From IMG/VR virus record IMGVR_UViG_3300042988_002177, positions 1 through 29,805 of that record: a DNA stretch of 29,805 nucleotides; one strand, written 5' to 3'. Both the position numbers and the translations under genes were made by a program. Below are positions 1,701 through 27,100 of the stretch, in pieces (the first letter of the stretch is position 1; the number at the start of each line of letters is the position of its first letter). The stretch comes from a virus. Its lineage: Duplodnaviria > Caudoviricetes. The notes below the pieces were generated by a model, which was given only the letters and a program-made list of their open reading frames with translations, was not told the DNA's origin and ran no database searches.

Positions 1701-1865
1701 CTAAAATACCGACATAGACAGCAAGTGAAGACAGTATTGCTTTTGAAAGTCCTGAAAAGTATTCAAGATCTTGGATCTTGGATCTTGGATCTTGGTCGTG
1801 GAACTTGCATATCTACTGTAGCAATTTCTCAGTCTACGTCTAATTAGTGGGATTGCTGGAATCAT
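1701..1865 (-). CDS. Arg/Ser-rich paralogue family member 7 (short or frameshifted, 54 aa)
   Basis: MIPAIPLIRRRLRNCYSRYASSTTKIQDPRSKILNTFQDFQKQYCLHLLSMSVF*. The ATG overlaps the TAA of 1865..2170 and the IPLIRRR motif is shared with the family. Confidence 0.65.
   Translation of the reverse strand: MIPAIPLIRRRLRNCYSRYASSTTKIQDPRSKILNTFQDFQKQYCLHLLSMSVF
1767..1794. repeat. Perfect 7-bp tandem repeat gatcttg x4 inside coding sequence
   Basis: gatcttg at 1767, 1774, 1781 and 1788. Confidence 0.9.
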
Positions 1866-2170
1866 TATGTATTACTCACCTTTGATTTAGTAAAAGAATG
1901 AAACCACCAATAATAACTAAAACGCGATGTCACACTGGACTTACTTCTACCCAATCTACTTAGTTTCATTTCATTTGAATTCATACTCCACCATCTACCA
2001 CTTCGACACCCACTTCTACTACTACTGCTGCGATTTGAGCTAAAATTAGAAATGACCTTACTTGTATTTCCGGGAGTTCCGCTTGAGACTGTGATACTGC
2101 TTCTATATCTACTATATGCAGCCCTTATTCTACGTCTAATTAGTGGAATTGTTGTCATTGTATCAGTCAT
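1865..2170 (-). CDS. Arg/Ser-rich paralogue family member 6
   Basis: TIPLIRRRIRAAYSRYRS...SRFSYYWWFHSFTKS; start may be the second Met (2158). Confidence 0.75.
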   Translation of the reverse strand: MTDTMTTIPLIRRRIRAAYSRYRSSITVSSGTPGNTSKVISNFSSNRSSSSRSGCRSGRWWSMNSNEMKLSRLGRSKSSVTSRFSYYWWFHSFTKSKVSNT

Positions 2171-2429
2171 GATTATATCTTGATGCAGTTATTGACGTCA
2201 CCCAGTAATGGATAAACCTGCTGCCCATACTTTTTGTTGTACTAACTGTCCAACCTAATTTAGTTTTACTTCTAGAAAAAAGGCGAAGGTGCCGATCTCC
2301 ATTTACTACCCTACTAGCAATAGCTCCTACAGTCAAGGCGCTTCTAACCCGGCTTGCAAGACCGCTATACGCATACCGACGACTCCTACTTCTGGCTCTA
2401 CGTCTAAGTAGTGGTAAAATAAAGTTCAT
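2163..2429 (-). CDS. Arg/Ser-rich paralogue family member 5
   Basis: MNFILPLLRRR...SRFIHYWVTSIT; ATGA overlap with the upstream gene. Confidence 0.75.
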   Translation of the reverse strand: MNFILPLLRRRARSRSRRYAYSGLASRVRSALTVGAIASRVVNGDRHLRLFSRSKTKLGWTVSTTKSMGSRFIHYWVTSITASRYNHD

Positions 2430-2740
2430 TTAGCTCTCGATTTAGTGCATGAATGTAGCCAATAAAACACATTAAACCGACTTGAGGAGAGGCTCCTGCT
2501 GCTGCCAATGCGACTATTTCCTATGCTACTTGTGGTACTCCACAGAGCCGTAGGCGTTCTATCACTACAGCTTGAAGAACTCATACAACCAGCCCTGGCT
2601 CCATTTATTGCAAGACTAACACAACCCTTAATGGTTAAATCCCAACTATCGATGCTTTCCCTGCTCTTCCCCCATTTTCTTGTATATTTCCTATAAACAC
2701 TTCTGCTTCTAGGTCTTGTAGTTGGTATATGGAAGTTCAT
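2426..2740 (-). CDS. Arg/Ser-rich paralogue family member 4
   Basis: MNFHIPTTRPR...SRFNVFYWLHSCTKS. Confidence 0.75.
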   Translation of the reverse strand: MNFHIPTTRPRSRSVYRKYTRKWGKSRESIDSWDLTIKGCVSLAINGARAGCMSSSSCSDRTPTALWSTTSSIGNSRIGSSRSLSSSRFNVFYWLHSCTKSRAK

Positions 2741-2746
2741 TTAAAC

Positions 2747-3010
2747 TCATTTATTTCGGTTTGTCTTGTTTATTGACCAAAACCATAATGAAAGCCCAAG
2801 TCTATTACCTGCCCTGCTTGCTAGATTTGTTTTTGGTGCAAAGCCACTGCAGCTGAGAAAACTGCTCCCACATCCAGCTATGGTCCATTTGCTGCTTCTG
2901 GTCCTACTTCGGTATAATCCGATTTTTGACCGAGGGCTGCTCCTCATAAATCTATTATATATTCCTCTATATCTACGTCTAATTATTGGAATATGTATAT
3001 GAAAGTTCAT
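2747..3010 (-). CDS. Arg/Ser-rich paralogue family member 3
   Basis: MNFHIHIPIIRRR...LWFWSINKT. Confidence 0.75.
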   Translation of the reverse strand: MNFHIHIPIIRRRYRGIYNRFMRSSPRSKIGLYRSRTRSSKWTIAGCGSSFLSCSGFAPKTNLASRAGNRLGLSLWFWSINKTNRNK

Positions 3011-3275
3011 TATAAGTCCTGTGTTTAGTTACTGAACAAACCCAATAGTAATATCTACTCTTGCTGGTCCAACTCTTGCTCCAAAGGGAGGAAACGCAAT
3101 TCGCTCTTACATTGCTCCATACGTTGGTTCTGGAGGTTAATCTGCTCTCAGTTCTGCTGGTTTTAATACTTCTAGCCTTAACAACTCCAGCTAAATCTCT
3201 GTATCTACTGAAAACTCGTTTCTTTCTGAACGGTCCTCTATTTCTACGCCTCATTAATGGAATATAGAAGTTCAT
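2979..3275 (-). CDS. Arg/Ser-rich paralogue family member 2
   Basis: MNFYIPLMRRR...SRYYYWVCSVTKH; TAATG overlap with the upstream gene. Confidence 0.75.
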   Translation of the reverse strand: MNFYIPLMRRRNRGPFRKKRVFSRYRDLAGVVKARSIKTSRTESRLTSRTNVWSNVRANCVSSLWSKSWTSKSRYYYWVCSVTKHRTYNELSYTYSNN

Positions 3276-3595
3276 TACTTAGACCCATAGGTTATGGAAT
3301 AAATCCATGTGTATGTTATTCCATATCGACAACTATCGCTACGACTAGTCCAATTACTTCTACTCCACGTCGTGCTGGTTATTGTTGTATCAGGTCGGGA
3401 GCTTCTGACTCTGCTGTGACAACTCCTCCAGTTCCAACTCCATGAGTAATTACCACCACCTCCACTGCCTCTAGTTATACTACTGTTCCTAAGTGCGTCT
3501 GGTCTCCTATTGCAGACGCTCTTACTGCGTCCATATCTTTCATATGTAGGCCTTAAAGTGCGTCTAATTAGTGGAATATGGATATGAAAGCTCAT
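3275..3595 (-). CDS. Arg/Ser-rich paralogue family member 1
   Basis: MSFHIHIPLIRRT...YTWIYSITY. Confidence 0.75.
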   Translation of the reverse strand: MSFHIHIPLIRRTLRPTYERYGRSKSVCNRRPDALRNSSITRGSGGGGNYSWSWNWRSCHSRVRSSRPDTTITSTTWSRSNWTSRSDSCRYGITYTWIYSITYGSK

Positions 3596-3606
3596 TGGTT
3601 TATCGG

Positions 3607-3843
3607 TTATCGTTTTCTTCTAGGCTTCGGCGGTTTCTTCCAGCCACGCCGTGGGCAGCGCCCAAATGGTGGTGTCATATAGCATATCACACCGATGTCG
3701 TTCTTGTCCATCAGCCTGTCGATGTGCTGCGCCTTTGGGTCTAGATAGTCTTCAACGAAGTCCGGTATTTCATTATGCTTAGGTTCAGGTTCAGGTTCAG
3801 GCTTAGGTTTGGTTGTTTTTGTTTTCGGATTTTGCTTTTTCAT
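3607..3843 (-). CDS. Small basic hypothetical protein with PK/PE repeats
   Basis: 78 aa, KPKPEPEPEPK, basic tail; co-oriented and tightly packed. Confidence 0.7.
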   Translation of the reverse strand: MKKQNPKTKTTKPKPEPEPEPKHNEIPDFVEDYLDPKAQHIDRLMDKNDIGVICYMTPPFGRCPRRGWKKPPKPRRKR

Positions 3844-5307: not shown

Positions 5308-5489
5308 CTCGCACTATACATCAGGCCTTTAATTATTACTAGCTCTTTGTTTGCCTGCATTCACTTCCGATACCGCTCTGCCCGCACTATACATCAGGCC
5401 TTTTAGCTGCTGCGAGCACAAGCTGGCAGGCTCGAATCAGGGCTAATGGCATCCCCGCACTATACATCAGGCCTTTTAGCTGCTGCGAG
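5308..5489 (-). CRISPR. Minimal CRISPR-like array: 3 repeats, 2 spacers
   Basis: Identical 36-bp repeats at 5454-5489 and 5381-5416 (- strand CTCGCAGCAGCTAAAAGGCCTGATGTATAGTGCGGG). Degenerate 35-bp copy at 5308-5342 (CTAGTAATAATTAAAGGCCTGATGTATAGTGCGAG). Unrelated spacers of 37 bp (5417-5453) and 38 bp (5343-5380). Repeat ends are complementary (CTCGCA/TGCGGG). Abuts a RuvC nuclease gene. Confidence 0.85.
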
Positions 5490-7068
5490 GGCCTATGTGT
5501 TTTGGTCTTGTAGTGGCTTGATATTCTTGATGTATTCTCTCATCTTGCGAGCGACCCCTAGTGACCCCTACTGTAGGCTTGCGCCCCAGCGGCTCTTCAA
5601 TAGTTAAGTACGCACGTTCCCGAGAGTTTTTGTCTGCGAGCGGGTCTAGGGGAGCGGTTACCACCGAGCCCCTCGCCTTACTGGCCGATTTCCCACTTGG
5701 ATACAACTCCGGACCTACCGCCGACAGGGTGGTGTGTGCACCCTTAAGCCACTCATTTCGAGCAGCCTGTAAGTCCAGTTTACCTTTACCTTCACCTTCT
5801 ACAACAAATCGCGCAAGATATGCGCTAAAAATATCTCTTTGGCAATTAACTCCGCAGTCACAAATATGACGTGCTTGTGGACCCATATTGGGGTTCTTTG
5901 CCTTACGACCGCATAAACACATTTGAGACAAAGCTGTGGTGCGTGTAGGAATTAATACCACATTGGTTAATTGCTTTAGACGGGCAATGAGATAACCAGG
6001 AGCAGTTGACTTAAGTCTCTTGTTCCAGTTAGAATTACGCCAAGACCTGAAATCAAGGTCTTCCGTCATTATAATACCGCGTGCGGCAATATCTTTGGCA
6101 AGTATATTTCTCCCATTCTTACGAGCCGTCGCCTCTTTACGGTGGAGTTTACGCAAAGCTTTTTTGGTAGCCTTGAGAGCCGCTGTATCTTGTTTTAGCT
6201 TATTCTTCTTATTAGCCTCAATTTGACGAGACATTTTGCGGCTAATTTTACGCAGTTTAACATCGAATTTGTTTTGTTGTACGGTGTCATGACGTAGAAC
6301 TAGACTGCCTGAAGTGGCATCGACAACAGCTACAGTAGATACACCAATATCTACTCCAACACTACCTGACTTAGGCTGTACTCGGGATAAAGTCTTCCCT
6401 ACACAGATAAGGCGGGCAGAAAAGGTGTCTCCATTGTAACACATCTCAATAGAAGAAATTCGGTGCTTAAGAGCATATTCAGCAAATTCATCGCCTTTTT
6501 CCCAATAAGGCTTAATTATAAGACCTGCTCCCCACTGAATACCTTCAGGAGTGAGCTTGATGTGTTGATTTCCGTTTATAGAAACCCATTCGCCTCTACG
6601 AAGACTTCGGAATCTCGGACGCTCCCCACCATATAACCACGCTCCCGCTGTCTCATAGGCTCTTTCGGCAATAGTATTAGCTGGCTGAGCACCTAGGTCT
6701 GGAGCTATGGCATTTCGAAGGTTCTTGTACTTCAATTCCTTGGTTACATCAAAAATATTTATTCCTTTAAATGGAAGACCCGGAATATTCTTAGAAAGAC
6801 TCTTAAGTTCTGCAGCAAGGTCTGTGGGCAATTTCTTGTTTAGACGACGGCGTTCAGTACAAAGCCACTGATATCTCTTATTGGCTTTGATATGTTCTAC
6901 CCGCTTAATTGCTTCACGAAGATTCACATTGTACCACTTAACTACTTGCACAAACCTCTTTCGGAGTTCGTGCTTCTGGGCTTCAGTAGGGCTCAAGGCA
7001 AGCCGAAACACAAACCGGCCATCTTCTTGTGTTTTTTCTGTTGTGTTCATTGCTTTCTTTTGTGTCAT
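5476..7068 (-). CDS. tnpB: TnpB/Cas12f-like RNA-guided RuvC nuclease (530 aa), CRISPR-associated
   Basis: N-terminal FRLALSPTEAQ...YN (OrfB-type start), PRFRS, RuvC-I VGVDIGV, basic bridge region, RuvC-II TEDLDF, Zn-finger SQMCLCG...ICDCG, RuvC-III RDIFSAYLA. All three acidic catalytic residues (D, E, D) are present. Confidence 0.9.
   Translation of the reverse strand: MTQKKAMNTTEKTQEDGRFVFRLALSPTEAQKHELRKRFVQVVKWYNVNLREAIKRVEHIKANKRYQWLCTERRRLNKKLPTDLAAELKSLSKNIPGLPFKGINIFDVTKELKYKNLRNAIAPDLGAQPANTIAERAYETAGAWLYGGERPRFRSLRRGEWVSINGNQHIKLTPEGIQWGAGLIIKPYWEKGDEFAEYALKHRISSIEMCYNGDTFSARLICVGKTLSRVQPKSGSVGVDIGVSTVAVVDATSGSLVLRHDTVQQNKFDVKLRKISRKMSRQIEANKKNKLKQDTAALKATKKALRKLHRKEATARKNGRNILAKDIAARGIIMTEDLDFRSWRNSNWNKRLKSTAPGYLIARLKQLTNVVLIPTRTTALSQMCLCGRKAKNPNMGPQARHICDCGVNCQRDIFSAYLARFVVEGEGKGKLDLQAARNEWLKGAHTTLSAVGPELYPSGKSASKARGSVVTAPLDPLADKNSRERAYLTIEEPLGRKPTVGVTRGRSQDERIHQEYQATTRPKHIGPRSS
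5490..5720 (-). ncRNA. Candidate tracrRNA/omegaRNA-like structured RNA overlapping the nuclease 3' end
   Basis: GC-rich region with a hairpin at 5648-5673 (aggggagcggt-tacc-accgagcccct), a CCTAC/GTAGG hairpin at ~5567-5577, and segments complementary to the repeat 3' half at 5515-5551. Boundaries are a guess. Confidence 0.5.
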
Positions 7069-13647: not shown

Positions 13648-16600
13648 ATGGCGGACATCCCCACTCCACGTTCATATAATCAAATTCTAAGCGACTTAAT
13701 TAGTGCCTTTTTGTCAAGGTATGGTATTTCACAACTACAAGTCGGTTCGCCTATTCTGTCCTTCTTAGAAGCTGCTGCTCAAAGCGATGTAAGAAGCAGC
13801 CAAGATGTATTCAACCTACTGGATTCAATTTCTATAGACAGAGCTAATGGTCAGGCATTAGACCGCTTAGCTGCTGATGAAAACATAGCTAGACGCACTG
13901 TAACTGCTTCAAATGGCGCAGTTACCTTTTATGACACAAGTTTTACAAAGAAGTCCAGCTTACTGTATTTAGGCACTGGAGCATTAGTTGCCGGAAGCTT
14001 GACTGTTCAAGTAGAAGATGCCCTTTCTTTCCCAGTTTCTGGAACTATTTACATTGGACGTGGAACTGATAACTTTGAAGGTCCGCTTACATATACTGCC
14101 AAAACTCAATTTGCTGGATATTGGCAATTAACCCTATCTGTAGCTACATCTAAGTTCCACAACTTAGGAGAGACAGTTGTTGTAGGTCAAGGTGGGCTAC
14201 GTCAAATTCCTCCGGGAACTGTAGTCCAAACTACACAACAAGCTCTTGGCGATGCAATTAAGTTCACTACCATCTATAGTGCAGTAATTCCAGATGGAGA
14301 GGTTGAAGTAACTGACGTCGATGTTCTAGCTCAAACTCCAGGTCTTTCTGGAAACGTACCAGCAAACTCAATCAAAGAAGTAGTATCTACTTTATTTGTG
14401 GGTGCTGCTGTTAAGAACCCATTGCCGTTTAGTACAGCAACTGCTGCTGAAACAGACGAAGCACTACGCGAACGCATTAAAGACGCTAAACAATCCAGAA
14501 CAAAGGGAACTGGGTTATCCATAATTAATGCAATTAGAGGAGCTAGGTCTTCTGAAGACAATAAAACCCTTATTAGCTCGTCTTTAGTTACTTCAGGAGA
14601 TAGAGCGAAGCTATATATAGACGATGGTACTGGGTATGAAGAAACATTTGGAAACGTAGCCACCGAGACGCTGATGGATTCTGCTCTTGGTGGGGAAGAC
14701 GTTTTCCAACTATCCGGACCTAGACCAATTGCTAAGGCTTTCGTAAAATCTGGATACACTGCTCCATTTGAACTAAATGACCAAGACTTGCTATCCGTAC
14801 AGGTCGGCGGTGTTACATCTACCCACATATTCCCAAGTGGAGACTTTTACAACATAGCTAATGCTTCTGCATATGAAATAGTAGCAAGTATCAATGGTAA
14901 TCCAAATCTATTGTTTAATGCAAGAACTTCCGATGGCGGTTCTAAGGTTAGTTTATTTGCTAAATCAGACGTCAACGAAGATTTGCAGGTTCTTTCCTTA
15001 GATTCTTCTGATGCTAACGTAGCTCTTAATTTCTCTACAAATCCAGCTTATACACTTCGTTTATACAAAAACGACGTATTGCTCTACAAAGATGGCAAAA
15101 CTGCACTAGTTAGCAGCCTTTATCAATACGAATGGAACTCCGGTATAACCGATGGAGACACTTTAATTCTCTCTGTAGACGGGACCTCTGACCAGACAAT
15201 TACAATAAGAAACTCTGACTTTATTTCACAAAACACAGGCTATACTACTGTTAATTACCAAAACTCACTAGATTCTTGGGTAACCGTACTTTCTTCTAAA
15301 ATAGCTGGTGTGTCTATATATAATAGAAATGGCAGACTTGAAGTCTCTAGTAACCTAAAGGGTAATTCAAGAAGCCGCATTGAAATTGTTGGCGGGACAT
15401 TAACCACCAAAAACATGTTCAATGTTGGAGATGTATCTGTTGGCCAAAACAATGACTATTCATTAAACAGAAATACTGGTCAAATCAAGTTAAATCAGCC
15501 ATTGGTTGAATTTGATAAATTAGAGATTGCCAGCCCAAATACAAAAGCTTACATTCAGACTCCAGAATTCCCTACATCAAGTGTTACATTTGCAGGCAGT
15601 ATCCCAACTTGGTGGTTTTGTATAGATGGTTCTTCTTCTTTATTGAATCCAAATATATCAAGCTCTACGTCCATTGCGGTAAGTATTCCAGTAGCTGGTT
15701 TAAGTAAATATCAAGTAGCCAGCGGATTGCTTGGTGGAGAGGTTGAAGTTGGTGACTGGGTAGTTATTTGGGATACTGCATTTAATGCAAGTAATAGAGG
15801 TATCTTTAGAGTTACCCAAGTAGATAATGCTACTGACTATTTTATTGTCGAAAATGCTGCAGCGGTTCCAGAAACTGTAACTCCAAGTTCACAAGGAATC
15901 GCCTTCGCTCGTAGCTCTACACAACCACAGTCAGTCAGTGCCACAATAGCAACATATTCTCTTAATTCATTAGCTACTTTATTTAATCAGTCTTTAATTG
16001 GAGCTAAAGCTGAAGTTTACAGGAATAAGTTCTTCAGAGTTACCTCCAATTCATTCGATAATGGTGATGTATTATTGATTACAGCCAATACATCAGCTCA
16101 ATCTCTGTTATTGCCAGTAAGTCATGACGATGCAGAACCTAATCACTTAGCCACGGTTGAAAGTGGTCATTCTGAACTTGGTACGCCCAGGTTCTTATTT
16201 ACATCAGTATCTTCAGCAACCTCCAATACAGTAACTGCTACTCCAAAAACAACCTCAATTACAGACAGCCTATATGACTATTGGGGTGTAGGTGATTTTA
16301 TCAAGTTCCAAAAGAAGCTTGATACTACAGTAAGTTTCTATGGAAATGCAAGCGAAGACCGTAGAGTTTTGACTGATATCACTGGTTCAGTCTCTACTAC
16401 TAAGACAAATGCAATGTCCAGAACTCCAGAAGCCGGAGATATTGTTCAGGGATTCAATACATTCACTCTTGGTGCAACTGACAGCATTAACGTCATACTG
16501 GATGGAGATGCATTAAACAAGAATTATAATATCCCACTATACAGACAAGTTAAGCCATTGGCTGGAGCCACATACGGTGCCGCTGCGTTCGAGGTTCGTG

Positions 16601-19600
16601 AAACAGCCGGTTCCTCCCTATTTGCTGCTTGGGGAACTACTTCGTCTTTATTTAATGACTTTGCTGTATACATGAAAGCCAGAGGCAAGTCACACTCAAT
16701 TTCTGCAAATCAAGCGCTTTTGTGGAGATTTGCCAGAAGCGGTCCAGAAGGTGAGTGGGCAAAGGTACGATATGTAAATCCAACTGCCCCAAGCCAGACT
16801 TTGGGCATATCAGCTTCTGACGCAATTCCTTTAGTTAAAAATCAAATAGCTGGAACCGGGACATCGTCATATCCAAAGACATTTATTGATGTAACTCTTC
16901 CATCTGGGACAGAGCGCACTGGACTTGGTTTAGATGGCAATATGTATTGGCTATTTAACAAATTCCCTACATTTACAGCAGGGGTTGCCAGAGTTGCTAG
17001 ATCTGCCGGTACTACAGTTACGGTTACATTAGACTTGACACTAACCTCTTATTTACATAATTTGTCTATTGGGGACATAATTGTATTAACAAATAGTGAT
17101 ACAGATTTCGCAGCTGGCGTATATACAATAACAAACGTAGGTGCTGCAAGCTTCCAATATAGTGATACCGGAGCTAATACAGTAAACGGGACAAGCCTTA
17201 CATACGCTCTGTATTATAAAGATGCCGGTATTAGTTATTCAATTACAAATATCGCAGTAACATCAAACGTAGTAACTGCTACAATTGGAGCGCATCCATT
17301 CAAGATAGGCGATGTAATTTGGGTGCCATATCCATACTACTATAACTCAGGTGCCTCAGCTGTAGGATTAGGTAGTTTTACTGTAACTGCAATAAGTGGC
17401 ACTACAGTAAGTTGGACTCAATTTAAACCAGATTTAGCAAGCACACCCACTCCTGGAGTATGGGTAGTCTCAACTGGTGCTACCGCAAAATGTACTGCGC
17501 AATACTACAGGGCTCAGGTCAAGGCTGGTAGCTTACAAAGAGTGGGTTCGGTAGTTACAGCTACTTGGGCAGCCACCTCACTAGTAGATAGTTGTCCATA
17601 CGCTGTTGGCGACTTAGTATATTTAACCCCAGGCGAAGCTAATTTTGCTGCTGGAGCTAAGGTAGTTACAGAGGTCGGGTCTGGATACTTTAAGTATTCA
17701 GAAACCGGTGCAGCAGTTTCTAGTGCTGGTATTCAGTACTTCCAATCAACGCCAAATATGCCTAATTTAACTGGTGGTGGAACTCCTGTAATAAACGGAG
17801 ATATTGTTAATTTCTCATCTTTCGTACCAGATTCTCTTGGTCTGCGTGGAAGCGTTAAGTTATCCGAAATATCTTCAACCGGATTTACATTCTGGTCAGA
17901 TTTAAGAAATACATCTGCGTATCAAGAAATATTTAAGCTAAACTCATTGACCAATATGAGGTTTTTCCCAATAACCCCAACAACTGCAAGTGCTATAGCG
18001 ACATATGTAAATAGCAATTCTAGTATTGTTTCAGCTACTGTATTGGGAACCGGAGCTACAAACGTAGACACTGCTACTGAAGATGAGTTCTTGACCAAAA
18101 CTAACAACGCTTCAATAAATGGAGCCGGAACCTTCTCAATTCCATGCTTTGATTTATTCGATGGAATTAACTACGTACTTAATACAAATATAAGTAATAT
18201 AGCTAGCAATATATCACTTAAGAAGGCGGTGAGTGGAGAATTAACTACTAACAATGACTTCAATAATGAAGTATTGACATTAATTCCCAAAACTGCAGAT
18301 AACTTTGTAAACTTCCTTTCCAATCCAGCTGCTACTGGCTTGTCGGCAAATGCTTCTATTTACACTTCTTCAAATGGAACGAAGGTTGAGCTAGTATCTT
18401 CTCAATCTGGAAGTGAAGGAAGTATACAAGTTGGCGGTGGTCAAGGCAACCAAAGCAGCGCCTTGATTTACAACGGAGCAATGAATTTAAGCTACAATAA
18501 CTCAGGATTCGTATTTAATGCTCTAACTTCCCAATTATCTGGATTCTCAGGAAGAATGCCAGTTAGAATTGCAAATCAAAATAAAACAGCTAAATCTGCG
18601 TATATAAATGCGGCAAATACGTGGACAATATATCCTGGCGATAATGCAAATGAATGGCTGATTGTATCTGACGATGTCGTAATAGTTCCTAAGGCCCAGA
18701 ACGTTGATGCGACTCCTAGAAATTGGCAAGTAATGAAACATGGAGACTTCGTTTCCTATACAGAAACAAGCGCTTCACCACTTGATTTTAGTGGCGTATA
18801 TGTTGGAGATTTGTTTATAATTAAGAATCCAGTAACTGGGACCGCATTTAGTCAAGTAAATACAGGTACTTTCATAGTTGTTGCGGTAGATGCGACAGCT
18901 TCTAAAAACACGGTTTGGGTCTATAATCCCAGTGGAGTCTCTGAAGTAGTAACTGCTACTACTGCTTGGATGAGAATTCTTGATTACAATAGCATTGACT
19001 TAGGCGACACACTGACAATTAGCTCATCAGTTCTCGGTTCTGCAAATATAGGGTCGTTTACTGTAAGTAGAAGGGCTGAGGACTATTTAAGCGCTGATTT
19101 CAACAAGAAATTCTATGTTACCGGGAATATGACAGCAGCCACAGCTGTTCTTGGTAATGACTATATTCACGTAAACATAATTGAAGCTAATCCTTTCTAT
19201 ACATATACTATAATTAACTCAATAATCGAAGATTCTGAAATACCAGGAACAAGCAAGGTTTATTGTGCTACTTCATTGGATTATTCTTATATTCCAAAGC
19301 TCAATTCTTCGGTTAATTCAACAATGATGGCTTTAGATAAGCTATCTTTCCCTACATCAGTTAATATAGGATTAGATGGATACTCCTATAACAATGGATT
19401 ACTGGGAGAGGTTCACAGAATTGTATATGGGGACGAAAATGACCCGGGTACATATCCTGGTGTCGCAGCAACTCCTGCTTTAATTGACATTTCTGGACCA
19501 TTGGTTAAGCGTCTCTATATATCATTAGAAGTGCGTCTAAGAACTGGCGTTTCAATTGACGCTATATTGAATAAAATTAAATCAGCTATTGCCGCCGAAA

Positions 19601-19797
19601 TAAACAATTCACCAATTGGCACGAATATTGCGATTTCTGATATAGTATCTGCGGCAAATAAAATTAGTGGCGTATTGTCAGTAACAATAATTTACCCAGA
19701 ATACTCACTAGGAAATGACTTAATCCCAGTTCAGGCGAATGAAAAGGCAACAATCTTAGACTTAAATAATGACATTTCAGTAACTATATTAAATTAA
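13648..19797 (+). CDS. Giant baseplate J/gp47-like (baseplate wedge) protein, 2049 aa
   Basis: N-terminal GSPILSFLEAAA...IDRANGQALDRLA...IARR...GAVTF, PGLSGNVPANSI, ETDEALRERIK. C-terminal INNSPIGTNIAISDIVSAANKISGVLSV. Long beta-rich S/T/G insertion between them. Confidence 0.88.
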   Translation: MADIPTPRSYNQILSDLISAFLSRYGISQLQVGSPILSFLEAAAQSDVRSSQDVFNLLDSISIDRANGQALDRLAADENIARRTVTASNGAVTFYDTSFTKKSSLLYLGTGALVAGSLTVQVEDALSFPVSGTIYIGRGTDNFEGPLTYTAKTQFAGYWQLTLSVATSKFHNLGETVVVGQGGLRQIPPGTVVQTTQQALGDAIKFTTIYSAVIPDGEVEVTDVDVLAQTPGLSGNVPANSIKEVVSTLFVGAAVKNPLPFSTATAAETDEALRERIKDAKQSRTKGTGLSIINAIRGARSSEDNKTLISSSLVTSGDRAKLYIDDGTGYEETFGNVATETLMDSALGGEDVFQLSGPRPIAKAFVKSGYTAPFELNDQDLLSVQVGGVTSTHIFPSGDFYNIANASAYEIVASINGNPNLLFNARTSDGGSKVSLFAKSDVNEDLQVLSLDSSDANVALNFSTNPAYTLRLYKNDVLLYKDGKTALVSSLYQYEWNSGITDGDTLILSVDGTSDQTITIRNSDFISQNTGYTTVNYQNSLDSWVTVLSSKIAGVSIYNRNGRLEVSSNLKGNSRSRIEIVGGTLTTKNMFNVGDVSVGQNNDYSLNRNTGQIKLNQPLVEFDKLEIASPNTKAYIQTPEFPTSSVTFAGSIPTWWFCIDGSSSLLNPNISSSTSIAVSIPVAGLSKYQVASGLLGGEVEVGDWVVIWDTAFNASNRGIFRVTQVDNATDYFIVENAAAVPETVTPSSQGIAFARSSTQPQSVSATIATYSLNSLATLFNQSLIGAKAEVYRNKFFRVTSNSFDNGDVLLITANTSAQSLLLPVSHDDAEPNHLATVESGHSELGTPRFLFTSVSSATSNTVTATPKTTSITDSLYDYWGVGDFIKFQKKLDTTVSFYGNASEDRRVLTDITGSVSTTKTNAMSRTPEAGDIVQGFNTFTLGATDSINVILDGDALNKNYNIPLYRQVKPLAGATYGAAAFEVRETAGSSLFAAWGTTSSLFNDFAVYMKARGKSHSISANQALLWRFARSGPEGEWAKVRYVNPTAPSQTLGISASDAIPLVKNQIAGTGTSSYPKTFIDVTLPSGTERTGLGLDGNMYWLFNKFPTFTAGVARVARSAGTTVTVTLDLTLTSYLHNLSIGDIIVLTNSDTDFAAGVYTITNVGAASFQYSDTGANTVNGTSLTYALYYKDAGISYSITNIAVTSNVVTATIGAHPFKIGDVIWVPYPYYYNSGASAVGLGSFTVTAISGTTVSWTQFKPDLASTPTPGVWVVSTGATAKCTAQYYRAQVKAGSLQRVGSVVTATWAATSLVDSCPYAVGDLVYLTPGEANFAAGAKVVTEVGSGYFKYSETGAAVSSAGIQYFQSTPNMPNLTGGGTPVINGDIVNFSSFVPDSLGLRGSVKLSEISSTGFTFWSDLRNTSAYQEIFKLNSLTNMRFFPITPTTASAIATYVNSNSSIVSATVLGTGATNVDTATEDEFLTKTNNASINGAGTFSIPCFDLFDGINYVLNTNISNIASNISLKKAVSGELTTNNDFNNEVLTLIPKTADNFVNFLSNPAATGLSANASIYTSSNGTKVELVSSQSGSEGSIQVGGGQGNQSSALIYNGAMNLSYNNSGFVFNALTSQLSGFSGRMPVRIANQNKTAKSAYINAANTWTIYPGDNANEWLIVSDDVVIVPKAQNVDATPRNWQVMKHGDFVSYTETSASPLDFSGVYVGDLFIIKNPVTGTAFSQVNTGTFIVVAVDATASKNTVWVYNPSGVSEVVTATTAWMRILDYNSIDLGDTLTISSSVLGSANIGSFTVSRRAEDYLSADFNKKFYVTGNMTAATAVLGNDYIHVNIIEANPFYTYTIINSIIEDSEIPGTSKVYCATSLDYSYIPKLNSSVNSTMMALDKLSFPTSVNIGLDGYSYNNGLLGEVHRIVYGDENDPGTYPGVAATPALIDISGPLVKRLYISLEVRLRTGVSIDAILNKIKSAIAAEINNSPIGTNIAISDIVSAANKISGVLSVTIIYPEYSLGNDLIPVQANEKATILDLNNDISVTILN

Positions 19798-19824: not shown

Positions 19825-20865
19825 ATGGCAGTTTTACCAGCAATATCAAGGTCTTGGTGCACCAGAGCTAATATTCCTATTCCCGACAACTCCTCTACTA
19901 GAAATGTCGGTAATAGCTTCTTGTGGAATCTAAAGGAATGCCTCCTTAATACCTCCGTAGGTGGTACTTTAACTGGTGTTCGTCATGCTAATAGTGTATG
20001 GACTGTAGTTAGGTCGTCCGATGGAGCTGCTGCCGGGGCTACTGAAGATGGTATTGACAGATGGGGCACTCCATACAACGCCTCTAAGTTTGTTCGAAAT
20101 ACAACTGGTAACGCCCACTCTTGGATTATTCTCCGTAATTCGTATATTGGCCATGACATGATTATTGCCTGCAATGCCAATAGCGACAAGGCTGGTCGAG
20201 TTGCATTTACCTTGTCTTCTACCCCATTTGGTGCCGGTTCGGTGACCGCGTCGCCTCCTATTACTAGTTCTCCTAGTTTTGCATATGGAATATCATCCGA
20301 TGCCGTTGGTAGCAGCATTTCCCTTTCAGAGGATGTAACATCCGGAGCTACTTTTTACTCTCACTTTATTGCTGATGATTTTGGGAATTTCATTTACTTA
20401 TACAGCAAAGTAGGTTCCGGAATCTTTAGCGGGATGGTATCTTTAATTCAATCGGTAAATGCTCATGTAAGTGATACATTTAATCGCTTTGCTTTTGGTG
20501 GAACGGCTGTGGTGTCAGGCAAAGGGACTCCAAGTTGCGCAAATGCTGCTCGTACAACTGCAGGTTGTACAAGTCGAGGGCCGGATAACAGCGCACCTAC
20601 CGGTGGAGCGACTTGTATATCTGCAGGAGGGACTTCACCATTAGCTGAAAATACCGGAAGGTCGGACTCTCGTAGTGGCGAAGTACGTTTTGTGCAAGTT
20701 CATGTCTTTTCAGATTCTCCACTTGCTTACAGAGGGGTGCTTCCTGATATATACGAAGTAATTGGAGGGGTGACTGGGACCTCATATCCAACTATAGCCA
20801 ATCAAACTTGGGTATCTGTCGGGAACTATCTTTTCCCATTCTTATCCACACAGCCCATATTATAG
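19825..20865 (+). CDS. Probable virion structural protein, paralogue A (346 aa)
   Basis: GGAGA RBS; S/T/G-rich; within the tail module; duplicate of the next gene. Confidence 0.75.
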   Translation: MAVLPAISRSWCTRANIPIPDNSSTRNVGNSFLWNLKECLLNTSVGGTLTGVRHANSVWTVVRSSDGAAAGATEDGIDRWGTPYNASKFVRNTTGNAHSWIILRNSYIGHDMIIACNANSDKAGRVAFTLSSTPFGAGSVTASPPITSSPSFAYGISSDAVGSSISLSEDVTSGATFYSHFIADDFGNFIYLYSKVGSGIFSGMVSLIQSVNAHVSDTFNRFAFGGTAVVSGKGTPSCANAARTTAGCTSRGPDNSAPTGGATCISAGGTSPLAENTGRSDSRSGEVRFVQVHVFSDSPLAYRGVLPDIYEVIGGVTGTSYPTIANQTWVSVGNYLFPFLSTQPIL

Positions 20866-20886
20866 AGTATATTTCGGAGAATAAAC

Positions 20887-21927
20887 ATGGCAGTTTTACC
20901 CGCAATTTCAAGAAGTTGGTGCACAAGGGCCAATATCCCTATTCCAAACAATTCTTCTACTAGAAATGTCGGCAATAGTTTCTTGTGGAATCTAAAGGAA
21001 TGTCTCCTTAACACTCTTGGCGGCGGAACTTTAACTGGTGTTCGTCATGCTAATAGTGTATGGACTGTAGTTAGGTCTTGTGACGGAGTTGCCTACGGAG
21101 CTACTGAAGATGGCGTTGACCGAATCGGAACTCCATATAATTCAACCAAGTTTGTTCGAAATTCAACTAGCAGTGCTCATTCTTGGATTATTCTCCGTAA
21201 TTCGTATATTGGCCATGACATGCTTATCTCTTGTAATGCCAACTCTGATACCACAAGCCGAGTTGCGTTTACTCCCACGTCGTCCCCGTTTGGTACAGGC
21301 TCCGTGACAGCCGACCCCCCAACTACTTCGTTCTCGTTTCAATTTGGAAGCAATGCTGACTCGACAACTACCGCTACTATAAACGTCGCGGATGTAACAT
21401 CCGGAGCTACTTTTTACTCTCACTTTATTGCTGATGATTTTGGAAATTTCATTTACTTATGGAGTAAGGTGGGTTCCGGAATCTTTAGTGGAATGGTATC
21501 TTTAATCCAATCGGTAGGTGCCCATCCAAGTGACACGTTTAATCGCTTTGCTTTTGGTGGAACAGCTACATCGACGAGCACCTCCCTAGGTACGCCATAT
21601 GTTTCAAGTGCCCATGGGCCTTCTGGCTGTACAAGTAGAGCGCCAGACGGTGGCGCAAACAGTGGAGGCGTCACAGCCTTATGTGCTGGAAGTGCTACTG
21701 CATTGTCAGAAAACAACTGGAAAGGAGATAGTCTTACTAATGAGGTGCGTTTTGTGCAAGCTCACGTTTTTTCAAACAGCCCACTTGCTTATAGAGGGGT
21801 GCTTCCTGATATATACGAAGTAATTGGAGGAGGGGTAGGGGTTTCGTACCCAAATGTAGCTAGTCAAACTTGGATATCTGCCGGGAACTATCTTCTCCCC
21901 TTCTTGTCCACACAGCCCCTATTATAA
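20887..21927 (+). CDS. Probable virion structural protein, paralogue B (346 aa)
   Basis: Same ggagaataaacatggcagttttacc start context and same length as paralogue A; long identical peptide blocks. Confidence 0.75.
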   Translation: MAVLPAISRSWCTRANIPIPNNSSTRNVGNSFLWNLKECLLNTLGGGTLTGVRHANSVWTVVRSCDGVAYGATEDGVDRIGTPYNSTKFVRNSTSSAHSWIILRNSYIGHDMLISCNANSDTTSRVAFTPTSSPFGTGSVTADPPTTSFSFQFGSNADSTTTATINVADVTSGATFYSHFIADDFGNFIYLWSKVGSGIFSGMVSLIQSVGAHPSDTFNRFAFGGTATSTSTSLGTPYVSSAHGPSGCTSRAPDGGANSGGVTALCAGSATALSENNWKGDSLTNEVRFVQAHVFSNSPLAYRGVLPDIYEVIGGGVGVSYPNVASQTWISAGNYLLPFLSTQPLL

Positions 21928-21930
21928 CTT

Positions 21931-24117
21931 ATGGCATATTCACTACTTAGAAGAGAAGTTGACATTGTCAATGACGTAACCGACGCCGAAGGTGTTCGAC
22001 GAATAACATTTCGCCAGCGGGAGTGGTGGTTTGATGCTGGACTTGGAATGGGTTATTATGCTGTAAGTCCGAGTTTGCGATTAAATCCGAACGCAACAGC
22101 AATAGATGGGACTGGTGCTCGTACGTGGATTACTCGACAGTCGGCTAGTTACCGTCTTGATGATAATTACGCACAGCCCCTCTCTGGAACACAGACAATA
22201 ACTGGCGACGGCATAACAGACTGTACTGTTACATTACGGTCTTTCGCACTGGGTGATGTTGAAATTATTTTTCAGGACGCCGCTCTGGGATATGGTCAGT
22301 ACTGGACACTTTCCTCAGCGGCTACAGGACCTGCAACTATAGAAGGCCCAATGAATCCTGAGGAATACTTGATGCCCGGAGTCAAAGATGGCGGCTATCT
22401 CGATATTATGGGATACAAGTATATCGACCTTACCGCACTTTTAAAGAACTGGAATACAGTTGAAGTTGTATTAGACGTAATCCCGACCTCAGTTAATACA
22501 ACCACATCAAATTGGACTATAACCGGACCTTCCGCCATTACTGTAACAGGGGTCAGTTGGACTCCGGGGACCTCCATAGTCACTCTAACTACTTCCGGTG
22601 CATTTGTTCCCGGAACTTACACTCTATCGGTAGCTCCGGGTACTGTATCGGACTTGATGTCTGTCAATCAGGCATCCAGAACCTTTGAAAGCCACCCTGT
22701 ACCAATTGCCTTCTCTGTACTGCGTAAGTCCAGTTCCCTTCTGCGGGTCAATCTGGACCGAGTCCCGACTGTAGTTAGTGCTAATTCATTAGATTACGTC
22801 CTAACTGGTCCATCCTCCCTTAGTGTGGATACAGTTTCCTATACTCCAGGTAATGATTATTTAGAACTAACTGTTAGTGGAGGATGGGTTAGTGGAACTC
22901 ATACATTAAGCATAGCTAGTCAGGCGATTCAAGATGGTTGGACCAATGCACCATCAGCTGATTTTGAATATGTAGCAGATGCGATTATAGTTGAGCCACT
23001 GTATTTCAATTCAACTCAAACAATGAGGGCTTATTTTACTACAATTCCAACCTCAGTAGATACAGACCCATTAAAATGGAATATTACAGGGCCCTATCCA
23101 GTTACTCCAGATACCATTACTTGGAATCCTGGGGATGATTATGTAGAGATATGGATAACAGTATTGACTGCTGACGGGCTGCTTCCATATGGCACATACA
23201 CCTTAGTTATGGACCCGGGTGTCGTCACTGATGGTTCTTCCGTAAACATATTGAGTGCCATTTTTGAAGTAAAGCACGATGTAATTAACTATTGGGGAAG
23301 AATTACTGGCGTAAATACGGTTCGTATAGACATAGGTCAAGAAATTCCATCTGCTGTTAGTAATAACCCACTTGGATACACAATAGTGGGTCCATCTGCT
23401 ATTACTGTAAATACCGTAAGCTGGACACCGGGAAATAGCTATATTGACTTAACTGTAACAGGGACCTTTGCTGCTGGCCAATATTCATTGTTTATAACCC
23501 CTGGAATATTGACTTTTGCTAGCAATTCAGTTTCTGCTCTATATACTTATCTTGGTGGAGCTACTGGCGGGACAGGAATTACCTTAACCTCTGTAACAGG
23601 TGGGGCTAATACCGTAAATATCTTGTTTAGTTCAACGCCTACACTACTGCAAGATGCTTTATTGCCAAATAGATATATAATTACTGGTCCAAATTCTGAA
23701 TATGTTCCAGTTTTCAGTGTAAATGTATCCGGAAATTCAATAATACTATCCACTGGCTGGCAAGCTAATGGAACTACTTATTCACTAAGAATTCCTAGTT
23801 CGTGGATAGCAAATGGTGGAGGCAGTGTATTTACTGGTCCATTTACTCAAAACTTCACTGGAGTAGCCACCTCTCCTGCCCTTACAATAGCCAGAACCGT
23901 AGATTCAAGAACTATAGAGGTTTGGTTCAATAAGCCAGTAAATGAGCTTGATGCATTAAATACCAACAACTACTCCATTACCAATGGGCTCACGGTTTCT
24001 GGTGTTTCAAAAGTCTCCGATACAATCTTTACCTTAACTACAAGTCACCAAACAGTTGGAACGTCATATACTGTAACTGCTTCCAATATTAGGGACTTTC
24101 AAGGATTGGTAATTTAA
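21931..24117 (+). CDS. Virion protein with tandem Ig-like repeats (728 aa)
   Basis: About five ~95-100-aa repeats with (W/Y)TITGPSAITVxxVSWTPGxxYxxLT...GTYTLxxxPG. Last repeat ends in IEVWFNKPV...NYSI...GTSYTVTASNIRD (Big/SbsA-like Ig). Confidence 0.75.
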   Translation: MAYSLLRREVDIVNDVTDAEGVRRITFRQREWWFDAGLGMGYYAVSPSLRLNPNATAIDGTGARTWITRQSASYRLDDNYAQPLSGTQTITGDGITDCTVTLRSFALGDVEIIFQDAALGYGQYWTLSSAATGPATIEGPMNPEEYLMPGVKDGGYLDIMGYKYIDLTALLKNWNTVEVVLDVIPTSVNTTTSNWTITGPSAITVTGVSWTPGTSIVTLTTSGAFVPGTYTLSVAPGTVSDLMSVNQASRTFESHPVPIAFSVLRKSSSLLRVNLDRVPTVVSANSLDYVLTGPSSLSVDTVSYTPGNDYLELTVSGGWVSGTHTLSIASQAIQDGWTNAPSADFEYVADAIIVEPLYFNSTQTMRAYFTTIPTSVDTDPLKWNITGPYPVTPDTITWNPGDDYVEIWITVLTADGLLPYGTYTLVMDPGVVTDGSSVNILSAIFEVKHDVINYWGRITGVNTVRIDIGQEIPSAVSNNPLGYTIVGPSAITVNTVSWTPGNSYIDLTVTGTFAAGQYSLFITPGILTFASNSVSALYTYLGGATGGTGITLTSVTGGANTVNILFSSTPTLLQDALLPNRYIITGPNSEYVPVFSVNVSGNSIILSTGWQANGTTYSLRIPSSWIANGGGSVFTGPFTQNFTGVATSPALTIARTVDSRTIEVWFNKPVNELDALNTNNYSITNGLTVSGVSKVSDTIFTLTTSHQTVGTSYTVTASNIRDFQGLVI

Positions 24118-27100
24118 TGCCATCTTCAAGTATATTTTCAGGCAGCCCTTTATTCCTCATCGATGCAGGACCGGTGCAGGCTGGTCAGTTGTATGTAAAA
24201 TTCTCTCAAGACCCATTAGCTGCGTCAAGTAGTGGCGCAAATGATGCATTAAATCCAAATAACTATTCATTAACTGGATTGGCATATGTAACCGTAACTA
24301 GCGTCACCCCAGTCTCTGGCAATCCACAGAGGTTTATATTAAATACAAATGTTCCCCTACAAAACGGGGACTGGAGACTTACTGCCTCTAATATAGAGAC
24401 TCCTGCTACAAATCCATTAGTTGCTCCGACTTTTATTGATTTTGAAATATCAGATATTTCATCAATTCCATCAATTTCTCAAGGCGCGGTACAGCAAACA
24501 TCAAAGAATATATTAAGGAATTATGTTCCAAGGGCAATAAAGGGAAATGCGGTTGATGCCTTATTAGATGCATTTTCTGTTGGTGACGAATATAACAACA
24601 AATTAGCTCAAGATGCCTGGAATCAATTGACTATAATCAATTCCAGCGGCAAATACTTAGATAGGAATGCAAGCAATGTAGGTCTTTTAAGACCACAAAA
24701 CACAGGAATGGCGGACTCTTTATTTAGAGAGTACGTAATTAATGTAACATCAGAAAAGGTTACATTACAGTCCTTTCTTAAAGTTCTTGAGATATTCTAT
24801 GGGGAAGACTCCACTAGAGCCCACCTTAGTTCCACAATAGTAGAAACTTACAATATACAAGACGGCGATACATTAAATCTAAGTATTGACAATAAGAACA
24901 TATTGGTAATATTTAGCCCAAATGACTTTGAAGTATACGGAGCGGCTACAGCAGAAGAGGTCGCAGCTGTAATAACAAGATATTGTGAATCAAACGGCTC
25001 TACTGCATTTGCTAAGTCTTACTTAACCACCTCTGGAAGAATAGTAAGAGTGTATTCTGGAGCATTGGGTATTCGAGGTAGAATTAGTTGTTTCGGTGGC
25101 TCTGCTCAACAAAAACTTAAGTTTCCACAAACTGTAGCCACTACACAAAACGCAACTACAGCTTGGACGGTTCAAGTAGCCGCTCCAGCAGTTTCTCCGT
25201 TCTTGAAAGGTGGCAGAGTTAGATTTACATATTCAGGGGTTGGAACCAATCCTAATCTACAGAACCTACAAGTCGGTAACTACGTAACCATATATGGGTC
25301 ACCGGCAAACTCCTTAAATAAAGGTTCTTTCAGAATTGAAGCTGTTAATTGGACCAGTAGTTCATCTCAATATTTTGAAATAGAGAATGTTTATGGAGTT
25401 AATCAATCGCTAGTACAAGTAGCCAGTAATGATTTAGAATTCTTTGCTCAACACGTATACACTGTAAATAACAACGTATTAAAATCATTTGTGTCTCAAA
25501 CTGAGCCAAATGTCACTGACGTTTATTTATCCGCAACTACACAGTCAGTAAATAGAGTCCCTGGAACCGGGGCGTATTTACATGAAGATTTCTTAACTAT
25601 GGCCAATAAAGTAGCCGTAGTTAGCATGTCAAGGGCTGCGAATGTTTTGACAGTAAACACAGACGGCAACCATAACTTAAACAACGGAGATAGAGTTTTA
25701 GTTTTGGCTTCATTTGGAGAGAATGTTGTACAATCTGGACCAGTTACAGTAGCTTCCGGAACTTCATTTACAATAAGTAATTTAGGCAATAATATTATAT
25801 TAACTAATGCCACTGGCAGTATTTATCCCACATTTAGGGATAATGACGGTAAATTGTATATAAAAACTACCACTGTACATGATTTGACTACTGGGAATTT
25901 AGTTAAAATAGATGGGACAGTAGCTGATACGGCTAATTTTAGCAAATACCAAGAAGTCCTTCCAGTCAACGGAGTTGGCGGAATGGACCTCTATGGTAGC
26001 ATTAAATTAAGCAATGGCAAAGTCTTGCAAGTTGGTGGAAGAATTGGTATTTCTCCTAGTAAAGACTGTTATATCTTCGACCCATCTACTAAGGTTTATT
26101 CTGCAGCATACAGCTTAGCAGATGAAAGAGACAGTCTTGAACTTTTTGAAATAAACTCTAATTATGTAATTGAAATGGGTGGCATTAAGTCAGGAGTTGC
26201 AAAGGCAACTACCTCAATATACAACATCGAAAACGACAGATGGACTGCTGGTGCCAGTATGTCGATTCCAAGGTACAAAAAGTTTGCAACTAAGCTTCAA
26301 AACGGGAAAATATTTGTTCATTCAGAGGAAGTTACAGAACTATATGACCCGGTATTAGATACATGGACTATATTAGAACCACTTCCATATGGATATCTTG
26401 GACCAAACTTAGTCACTCTAAATAATGGGAACGTATTCCTAGCTGGCGGTATTTGCACTACAGGTCCTAATACTGGCTTTAGAAACGATGAAACATTCAT
26501 TTATGACTTTACATACAATAAATGGATTAATATGTCACAAATAAGTGGCGTCAATAAAGAAATACAAGGAGATGCCTTCAGTTATTTAGACAATACAATG
26601 GGAGCCGATGGGACTGTAGTTATAGTAGGAGGCACCTTAGATTCACTCGATACAGAAGATACTACCGTTCAATACTATGACGTAGCTGCTAATAAATGGA
26701 ATACAGAGTGGAGTGGACTTAGCTTCCTTTCTTATGGTACAGCATATTGCCTAAATGCAGATGGCTATGTTGTAGCAGTTGGTGGTCCACTTACTACAGA
26801 TTCATATAGGCTATTAGATGTTAAAAACAAGAGAATTGTAGAATGTAGCGATACGTTCTTATCAACTGCCTACAATAAAGTCACATTATTGGATTCTGGA
26901 GATTTATTTCTGGGGGACAGTACAATGGCAGCCGCTACTATATACAGCGGATTTAAGTCACAAACTCTTTCTGGGCAATTAAACCAAATACTACCAATAA
27001 CTACATTAAGTACAACTTCTTTATATGTAGACACTTCCTCTATTACTGAATCTACCGGCTACAGCCCTATTTTAACCTCATATTTAGACTCAAACGATGA

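Follow-up and report, generated by a model that had tools for sequence, protein, structure and literature searches.

The phage DNA described here, a stretch of 29,805 nucleotides (hereafter the window), carries a gene for a TnpB-like effector with a short CRISPR array after it, and on balance this locus, an effector of IS605-TnpB descent with its array, probably works as a type V system resembling Cas12n. The evidence comprises the gene with its catalytic triad, the array, a distant locus (L004) with homologous repeats and other spacers, a first RNA stem matching that of the parent transposon family, and an anti-repeat which covaries with the repeat. The features of the locus, all of which lie on the minus strand, are collected in Table 1.

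Table 1. Features of the effector gene, its RNA-coding tail and the array (window positions).
Feature	Positions	Strand	Remarks
Effector ORF	5476..7068 (7068-5476)	-	530 aa, TnpB-derived; folded core about aa 1-450 (7068-5719)
RuvC-I Asp240 codon	6349..6351	-	invariant in 4-protein and 49-protein alignments
RuvC-II Glu336 codon	6061..6063	-	invariant in 4-protein and 49-protein alignments
RuvC-III Asp412 codon	5833..5835	-	invariant in 4-protein and 49-protein alignments
C4 zinc finger (C384, C386, C403, C405)	5854..5919	-	cysteines invariant in 4-protein alignment
Disordered C-terminal tail, aa 452-530	5479..5715	-	pLDDT 26-34; overlaps predicted RNA scaffold
Predicted tracrRNA-like scaffold	5507..5700	-	would come from TnpB right-end RNA
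Stem 1, arms 5697-5692 / 5644-5639	5639..5697	-	matches covarying first helix of parent family
Second stem, arms 5626-5621 / 5542-5537	5537..5626	-	L004 arms differ yet pair
Anti-repeat	5507..5535	-	pairs with repeat positions 1-28; L004 (5444-5469) in same register
Repeat 1	5454..5489	-	36 nt; contains stop codon
Spacer 1	5417..5453	-	37 nt; no target found
Repeat 2	5381..5416	-	36 nt; identical to repeat 1
Spacer 2	5344..5380	-	37 nt; no target found
Degenerate repeat 3	5308..5343	-	23/36 match; gene-strand 3' part kept; most distant from gene

The Effector and Its Relatives

The first-pass annotation had described a 530-aa ORF with RuvC D/E/D motifs and a zinc finger, and D240, E336, D412 and the four cysteines were all confirmed and found to be invariant; the triad is kept in every aligned clade member, and D/E/D does not vary across the 49-protein family alignment. 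It had also placed the stop codon (TAA, 5478-5476) inside the first repeat, where it indeed lies, at repeat positions 12-14. The RNA-guided TnpB model NF040570 matches the effector weakly (47 bits against a cut-off of 100), the phage transposase family phrog_506 matches it as well, and no solved sequence does so at E 0.01. The effector model, predicted from a shallow alignment of four sequences with a mean pLDDT of 62, retrieved two TnpB structures at the top of the Foldseek ranking, with Cas12f at 12-17% identity. Most homolog alignments to the effector stop at aa 420-470. At window position 6458, within codon 204, T stands in place of A in two runs of one sample, which is either a strain variant or an assembly difference.

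An exhaustive protein search returned two relatives at 45-46% identity and one at 37%, and then a broad, near-full-length family at 26-37%, while a search with the cluster P0005 added three further clusters. In a FastTree phylogeny of 110 of 126 rows, comprising no known Cas12 and purged of 16 rows lacking the RuvC-III motif pattern, a branch with support 100 sets clusters P0001, P0005, P0006 and P0007 apart on one side. This clade is long-branched and separate from the parent TnpB family (support 100), and the window protein itself sits on a long branch of 0.76. An RuvC effector is linked to an array in the clusters P0001 and P0006/P0154. The 3' DNA of the clade covers two loci, the window and L004; of P0005, locus L005 contains the N-terminal portion alone. 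When viral sequences were scanned with the protein, the alignment A1, the repeat or P0160, no virus other than this one turned up; the genome collection yielded no clade locus, and of the 30 loci found with a two-repeat motif scan, 29 lacked a related protein.

L004 is a 6.3-kb metagenome contig of putatively viral nature, with ParB-like and HNH-like neighbors, whose effector is 41% identical to the window protein. Its stop codon likewise falls at repeat positions 12-14, and its array consists of six repeats separated by five unique spacers of 36, 35, 36, 37 and 29 nt. The repeats of the two loci are identical at 20 of 36 positions, which 15 of 100,000 shuffles reached, and the arrays have zero spacers in common (two loci, 41% protein identity). 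Homologues with the same repeat and different spacers had been named as a check on the locus, and L004, with six homologous repeats and five unrelated spacers, is such a case; the array is therefore real and variable in at least two distant clade members. Directly upstream of its effector gene, L004 encodes a 438-aa Lys/Ala-rich, histone-like protein (2501-3817) with no PHROG match.

The Array and Its Spacers

The window array has a period of 73 and consists of two identical repeats and a degenerate third, which keeps an exact block of about 21-22 nt near its 3' end; the copy most distant from the gene is the degenerate one in L004 as well. Three repeats of 35-36 bp with spacers of 37 and 38 bp had originally been described, and the array stands, with the amendment that the third repeat is degenerate and that both spacers measure 37 nt in the 36-nt register. 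The complementary repeat ends noted at the same time are present, with one G.U pair; the repeat nevertheless folds no better than its own shuffles (z +0.18), and the L004 repeat has no paired ends. All seven spacers of the window and L004 are unlike one another.

The assembly is supported by the depth of the 36-nt repeat unitig, about twice that of its flanks, and no contig with an alternative spacer is listed (both in two runs of one sample). The locus is present in three freshwater DNA runs from two studies, two of which runs may be the source sample, with contigs that agree with the assembly, and no RNA run carrying it is listed. The array is identical in the viral record, and spacer 1 is unchanged in the second study; the virus is near-identical across the runs, so no spacer change is to be expected among them.

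Searches for targets gave no convincing protospacer. Against INPHARED phages, blastn with both spacers produced only matches at E of 2 or more; an 18-mer of spacer 2 matched the same virus alone, and the best self-match was 15 of 20. No match was found between the window array and plasmids, or between the L004 array and phages. An exact 16-mer of spacer 1 recurs in seven other IMG/VR contigs, and was rejected as chance at 19-24 of 37 identities.

The RNA Predicted in the Tail of the Gene

On the gene strand, the order of elements is stem 1, second stem, anti-repeat, repeat and spacer. Stem 1 has all six of its pairs in the window (reached by 5 of 500 shuffles) and five of six at the aligned place in L004 (68 of 500). 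A covariance model of the parent right end, which holds six pairs only, finds five viral parents and neither the window tail nor that of L004; homology of the scaffold thus rests on stem 1 together with short motifs.

Between the window and L004, 18 positions are paired with the repeat in both loci, and of the nine that differ, eight are changed on both sides; as far as two loci allow, this co-change is strong sequence evidence, short of formal covariation. Repeat positions 23-28 are Watson-Crick paired with the anti-repeat throughout (6/6), and the final eight nucleotides of the repeat, starting AGT, are unpaired in both loci. Going by the predicted structure and fold, the last 80 or so codons of the gene are likely to form a disordered segment that reads through an RNA scaffold and its anti-repeat, in the layout of Cas12n. 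A pairing of the repeat end with CTCGCA at 5640 was also considered, and is weakened by its overlap with stem 1 and by L004, in which four of six pairs form.

The Parent TnpB Family and Its Other Arrays

By sequence comparison, the clade derives from an IS605-type TnpB family, the profile of which matches it (profile match 100%) with 31% identity over 411 columns. A typical right end of the parent (GAAC foot, hairpin and TCAG) was recognized in 60 of 88 loci, the RNA of which has one strongly covarying helix near its start. For 35 of these 60, the parental stop codon falls within the right end, and the ORFs read on past RuvC-III for a median of 94.5 residues (108 of 125 proteins). In a crude motif test of 2-kb flanks, a Y1 motif occurred near 9 of 60 parent loci. 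An ORF running into the first repeat had been taken as the sign of a recent association between gene and array, an idea which the comparison contradicts: the overlap is found at the same base in L004 (41% identity), and parental stops lie mostly within the right end, so that the overlap is inherited rather than recent.

Repeat-spacer units also occur downstream of four of seven distinct viral distant relatives (L037, L038, L042 and L045) and of one of 74 genomic relatives with enough flank, in samples which are small and were chosen by different queries. The repeats of these distant viral arrays are mostly unlike those of the window, and their loci lie elsewhere in the tree. The occurrence of unrelated arrays with the same parent family in other phages suggests that phages are a frequent site of this transition.

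Several of these loci are of interest in their own right. L037 (3823-4500), on a 512-kb phage contig, has a parent-family TnpB (28% identity) and 36-nt repeats ending TCAG, with a significant gene-strand anti-repeat in its tail, and is a candidate for a second, separate type V system. L038 (4138-4230) and L042 (4074-4227) have a parent-family TnpB with the right-end RNA scaffold kept, and then 29-nt palindromic repeats; in L094 (3676-4570), a parent-family TnpB is followed by about 15 copies of a 29-nt palindromic repeat. We take the repeats of these three loci to resemble those of type I-E. L045 (3569-3740) is a long-branched TnpB relative from a phage; its array is short, and the 35-nt repeats have paired ends.

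Phage Context

The window is phage DNA, as it encodes a baseplate wedge and virion proteins, and a longer record of the same virus (50.8 kb, estimated to be 31% complete) adds a DNA polymerase, primase, helicase and ribonucleotide reductase. The earlier statement that no tnpA, serine recombinase, cas1, cas2 or cas4 is recognizable holds: cas or recombinase families found no match among the 33 window ORFs in PADLOC or among the window ORFs scanned in Pfam, and Cas1 and Y1 TnpA had no match in the 50.8-kb record, in a search which recovered them in 7 of 14 and 6 of 14 control genomes, respectively. Rfam gave no match. The effector gene is single-copy in the window and a further 22 kb of the record, and no empty site, that is, a locus without the insertion, was found.

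Other parts of the window deserve mention. Six tandem small ORFs of 87-106 aa lie at 1865-3595 on the minus strand; five share an MNF/MSF-(H/Y/I)-IP-like start, and the sixth is alignable at the DNA level. They contain 12-17% Arg, 15-26% Ser and hardly any acidic residues, have no Pfam or PADLOC match, and might, at a guess, be protamine-type DNA-binding or DNA-condensing proteins. About eight copies of a 9-nt tandem unit occupy positions 1571-1642, where no ORF reaches 60 aa. On the plus strand, a baseplate J/wedge protein of 2049 aa (13648-19797) is followed by two tandem 346-aa paralogs (19825-21927; DNA 72-90% alike), the first without a family match, and a Kelch-repeat protein of 1190 aa (24117-27689) also lies after the baseplate J gene. 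Positions 1-1053 fall outside the alignment to the longer viral record, and have a GC content of 50% against about 40%.

The Strand of the crRNAs

We consider it quite probable that the crRNAs are read from the gene strand. Two readings of the strand nevertheless stand, because the long hairpin of the window folds well on the opposite strand only: repeat 1 and the anti-repeat give -30.9 kcal/mol there (z -4.4) and -12.3 kcal/mol on the gene strand (z +0.5). In L004, the hairpin folds on both strands (-32.2 kcal/mol on the opposite strand and -31.0 kcal/mol on the gene strand). The best gene-strand duplex between repeat and tail was matched by 43 of 60 and 35 of 60 shuffles in the two loci, and is not significant. 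The gene-strand repeat lacks the terminal TCAG of the parent; in L004, the eight bases that precede this point are similar to those of the parent.

The other reading, which we hold to be rather unlikely, is that crRNAs come from the strand opposite the gene, with the array a set of inverted right-end-like repeats transcribed towards it. With about as little confidence, the mRNA tail ending in repeat 1 would then pair perfectly as an anti-repeat, and the last repeat would be tied up in the opposite-strand hairpin. This reading gains from the eight non-Watson-Crick positions, which are G.U there and A.C on the gene strand (six in the window and two in L004, positions 5 and 8 being shared), as opposed to just two G.U pairs, both at helix ends, that were counted by eye on the L004 gene strand; the table of wobbles, however, was drawn from the opposite-strand fold and lists only such wobbles, and is thereby biased to that strand. 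The opposite-strand repeat of L004 ends in the TCAG of the parent and agrees at 11 of 13 nt with the 3' end of the L037 repeat as read on the gene strand, but that of the window does not end in TCAG. The hairpin energy test is able to point the other way, as it favors the gene strand in the L037 control (1 of 60 shuffles). On the opposite strand, moreover, the degenerate repeat would become the first and be damaged in the half adjoining its spacer, no unpaired leader would stand beside the spacer, promoter-like sites are at chance (6 found, 4.6 +/- 2.3 expected), and the best duplex is reached by 7 of 60 shuffles in the window and 46 of 60 in L004, neither being significant.

It is unlikely that the locus belongs to a phage type V lineage, as yet undescribed, whose array is inverted relative to the gene, with crRNAs made from the opposite strand and the tracrRNA supplied by the mRNA tail that ends in repeat 1. 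Were it so, simple hairpin splitting would be joined by inversion as a second way of turning a transposon end into CRISPR, within a TnpB family which apparently gains arrays repeatedly in phages. A search of the openly accessible literature turned up neither this clade nor an inverted array.

Proposed Mechanism, Alternatives and Significance

Under the preferred, gene-strand reading, the gene and the array would be transcribed as one RNA, the tail of which (about 5700-5507, some 190 nt) would be the old right-end scaffold and supply a tracrRNA from the end of the mRNA. The right-end hairpin would have been split into an anti-repeat on the tracr side and a repeat on the crRNA side, with repeat positions 21-28 paired, the last eight nucleotides free beside the spacer, and crRNAs keeping the 3' part of the repeat. 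The complex would cut double-stranded DNA next to a short PAM by means of its intact RuvC. Spacers might be gained through host adaptation proteins, recombination, or genes elsewhere in the genome, beyond the part covered, the first two being invoked because no cas1 is seen. By analogy with CauTranC9, the likeliest targets would be co-infecting phages or other mobile elements. This agrees in part with the original proposal of a domesticated phage TnpB with a reprogrammable array: the effector is phage-borne and TnpB-derived, the array is variable, and adaptation genes are absent from the part of the genome covered, but the recent association fails.

The window copy could also be a decaying or frozen remnant, of a system real at the level of the clade, with one or two fixed guides and no spacer gain, in which repeat 1 and spacer 1 serve as a single TnpB-like guide in cis; both parts of this idea are quite unlikely. 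The copy has only two spacers and a half-lost third repeat, its distal anti-repeat is mismatched on the gene strand, and the protein has a long branch (0.76); against decay stand an intact ORF, triad and zinc finger, the identity of repeats 1 and 2, and an anti-repeat whose proximal 8 bp change along with the repeat. Similarly, the same array in the viral record, the unchanged spacer 1 of the second study and the lack of cas1 in 50.8 kb would suit a frozen array, but the runs hold a near-identical virus, for which no spacer change is expected, and the record is just 31% complete. Silencing of genes by a Cas12m-like complex which binds DNA without cutting is very improbable given the three catalytic residues in all aligned clade members and across the 49 proteins, although several compact type V subtypes act through binding according to the available text of PMC12669027, and host-gene targets would fit the failure to find a protospacer.

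The locus apparently represents a separate TnpB-to-Cas12 transition in which parent and derivative are directly comparable. As the right-end RNA of the parent is amply sampled, from 60 loci, and its first stem persists in the derived loci, where an anti-repeat and repeat take the place of its end hairpin, the RNA-splitting model is testable by a few point mutations. The predicted folded core of only about 450 aa makes the effector a candidate compact editor.

Comparison with Known Systems

The closest resemblance in layout is to Cas12n (V-N, formerly V-U4/C2c9), the tracrRNA of which is placed within a disordered tail in the available parts of PMC12216341, PMC11641405 and 10.64898/2026.03.27.714800. 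On those descriptions, Cas12n shares with the window effector a size of about 500-540 aa, a RuvC with a C4 zinc finger, a disordered C-terminal tail overlapping the predicted tracr-like RNA, and an array downstream; the order of scaffold, anti-repeat, repeat and spacer is also that of the Cas12n single guide and the TnpB guide. Cas12n is further characterized by an A-rich PAM and a monomeric effector. The pairing of 8/8 within the last 16 repeat bases fits the search rule given in the available text of 10.64898/2026.03.27.714800. Unlike in Cas12n, the ORF of the window reaches into repeat 1, and the Cas12u4 profile covers aa 226-361 only (136 aa of 488 positions) with 34 bits, a score no better than those of Cas12f or generic TnpB profiles and one without a positive-control Cas12n score beside it. 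The clade profile, too, gives RdCas12n (9J09) 32 bits against 46 bits for ISFba1 TnpB.

Cas12f differs in that its profile reaches 35 bits at best and its structures, at 12-17% identity, rank behind TnpB. The first-pass annotation had allowed for a described Cas12 subtype; none of the Cas12 profiles tested, those of Cas12n and Cas12f included, fits the effector, and the clade is separate in a tree which contains no known Cas12. Of the other phage type V effectors, which comprise Cas12j, Cas-lambda and Cas12p, the last two match the effector weakly in structure, as do others (11-14% identity). The Cas12r of Thermus Lalka phages is described, in the available part of its source, with 29-nt repeats and no tracrRNA, in contrast to the 36-nt repeats and predicted tracrRNA of the window.

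With IS200/IS605 TnpB of the RD[LI]xSA-motif family, the effector shares full-length homology, a long read-through tail, a stop in the 3' element and stem 1; it differs in lacking TnpA and a typical right end (GAAC foot, hairpin, TCAG), in place of which there are an array and an extended anti-repeat. TranC effectors (LaTranC, CauTranC9; clades 3, 9, 11 and 20) have, in the available text of 10.64898/2026.03.27.714800, short arrays with 32-38-nt repeats and no accessory cas genes; their tracr and crRNA are thought to come from a split right-end RNA, and CauTranC9 is phage-borne with an array targeting phage sequences. The TnpB-sized effector, short array and lack of accessory cas genes are thus common to TranC and the window, whereas a predicted tracrRNA in an unstructured tail is absent from all TranC clades in that same text. 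Among solved structures, LaTranC matches the parent-family profile best, with 79 bits over the RuvC part alone, and is not matched by the six-protein clade profile at E 0.1.

The groups V-U6 to V-U45 (Altae-Tran et al. 2023, PMC10691335), 15 of 40 of which are described as metagenome-only in the part available, resemble the locus, by description, as TnpB branches with a downstream array and no cas1. About 50 independent TnpB-CRISPR associations have already been inferred in the available parts of PMC12669027 and PMC10691335. The clade may already be among the V-U6-45 or TranC branches; it is probably a separate lineage with an independent TnpB-to-Cas12 origin. The type of system is already known from the available accounts of phage-borne TnpB-like effectors with arrays (CauTranC9, Cas12r), and, this kind having been published several times, the surprise is limited.
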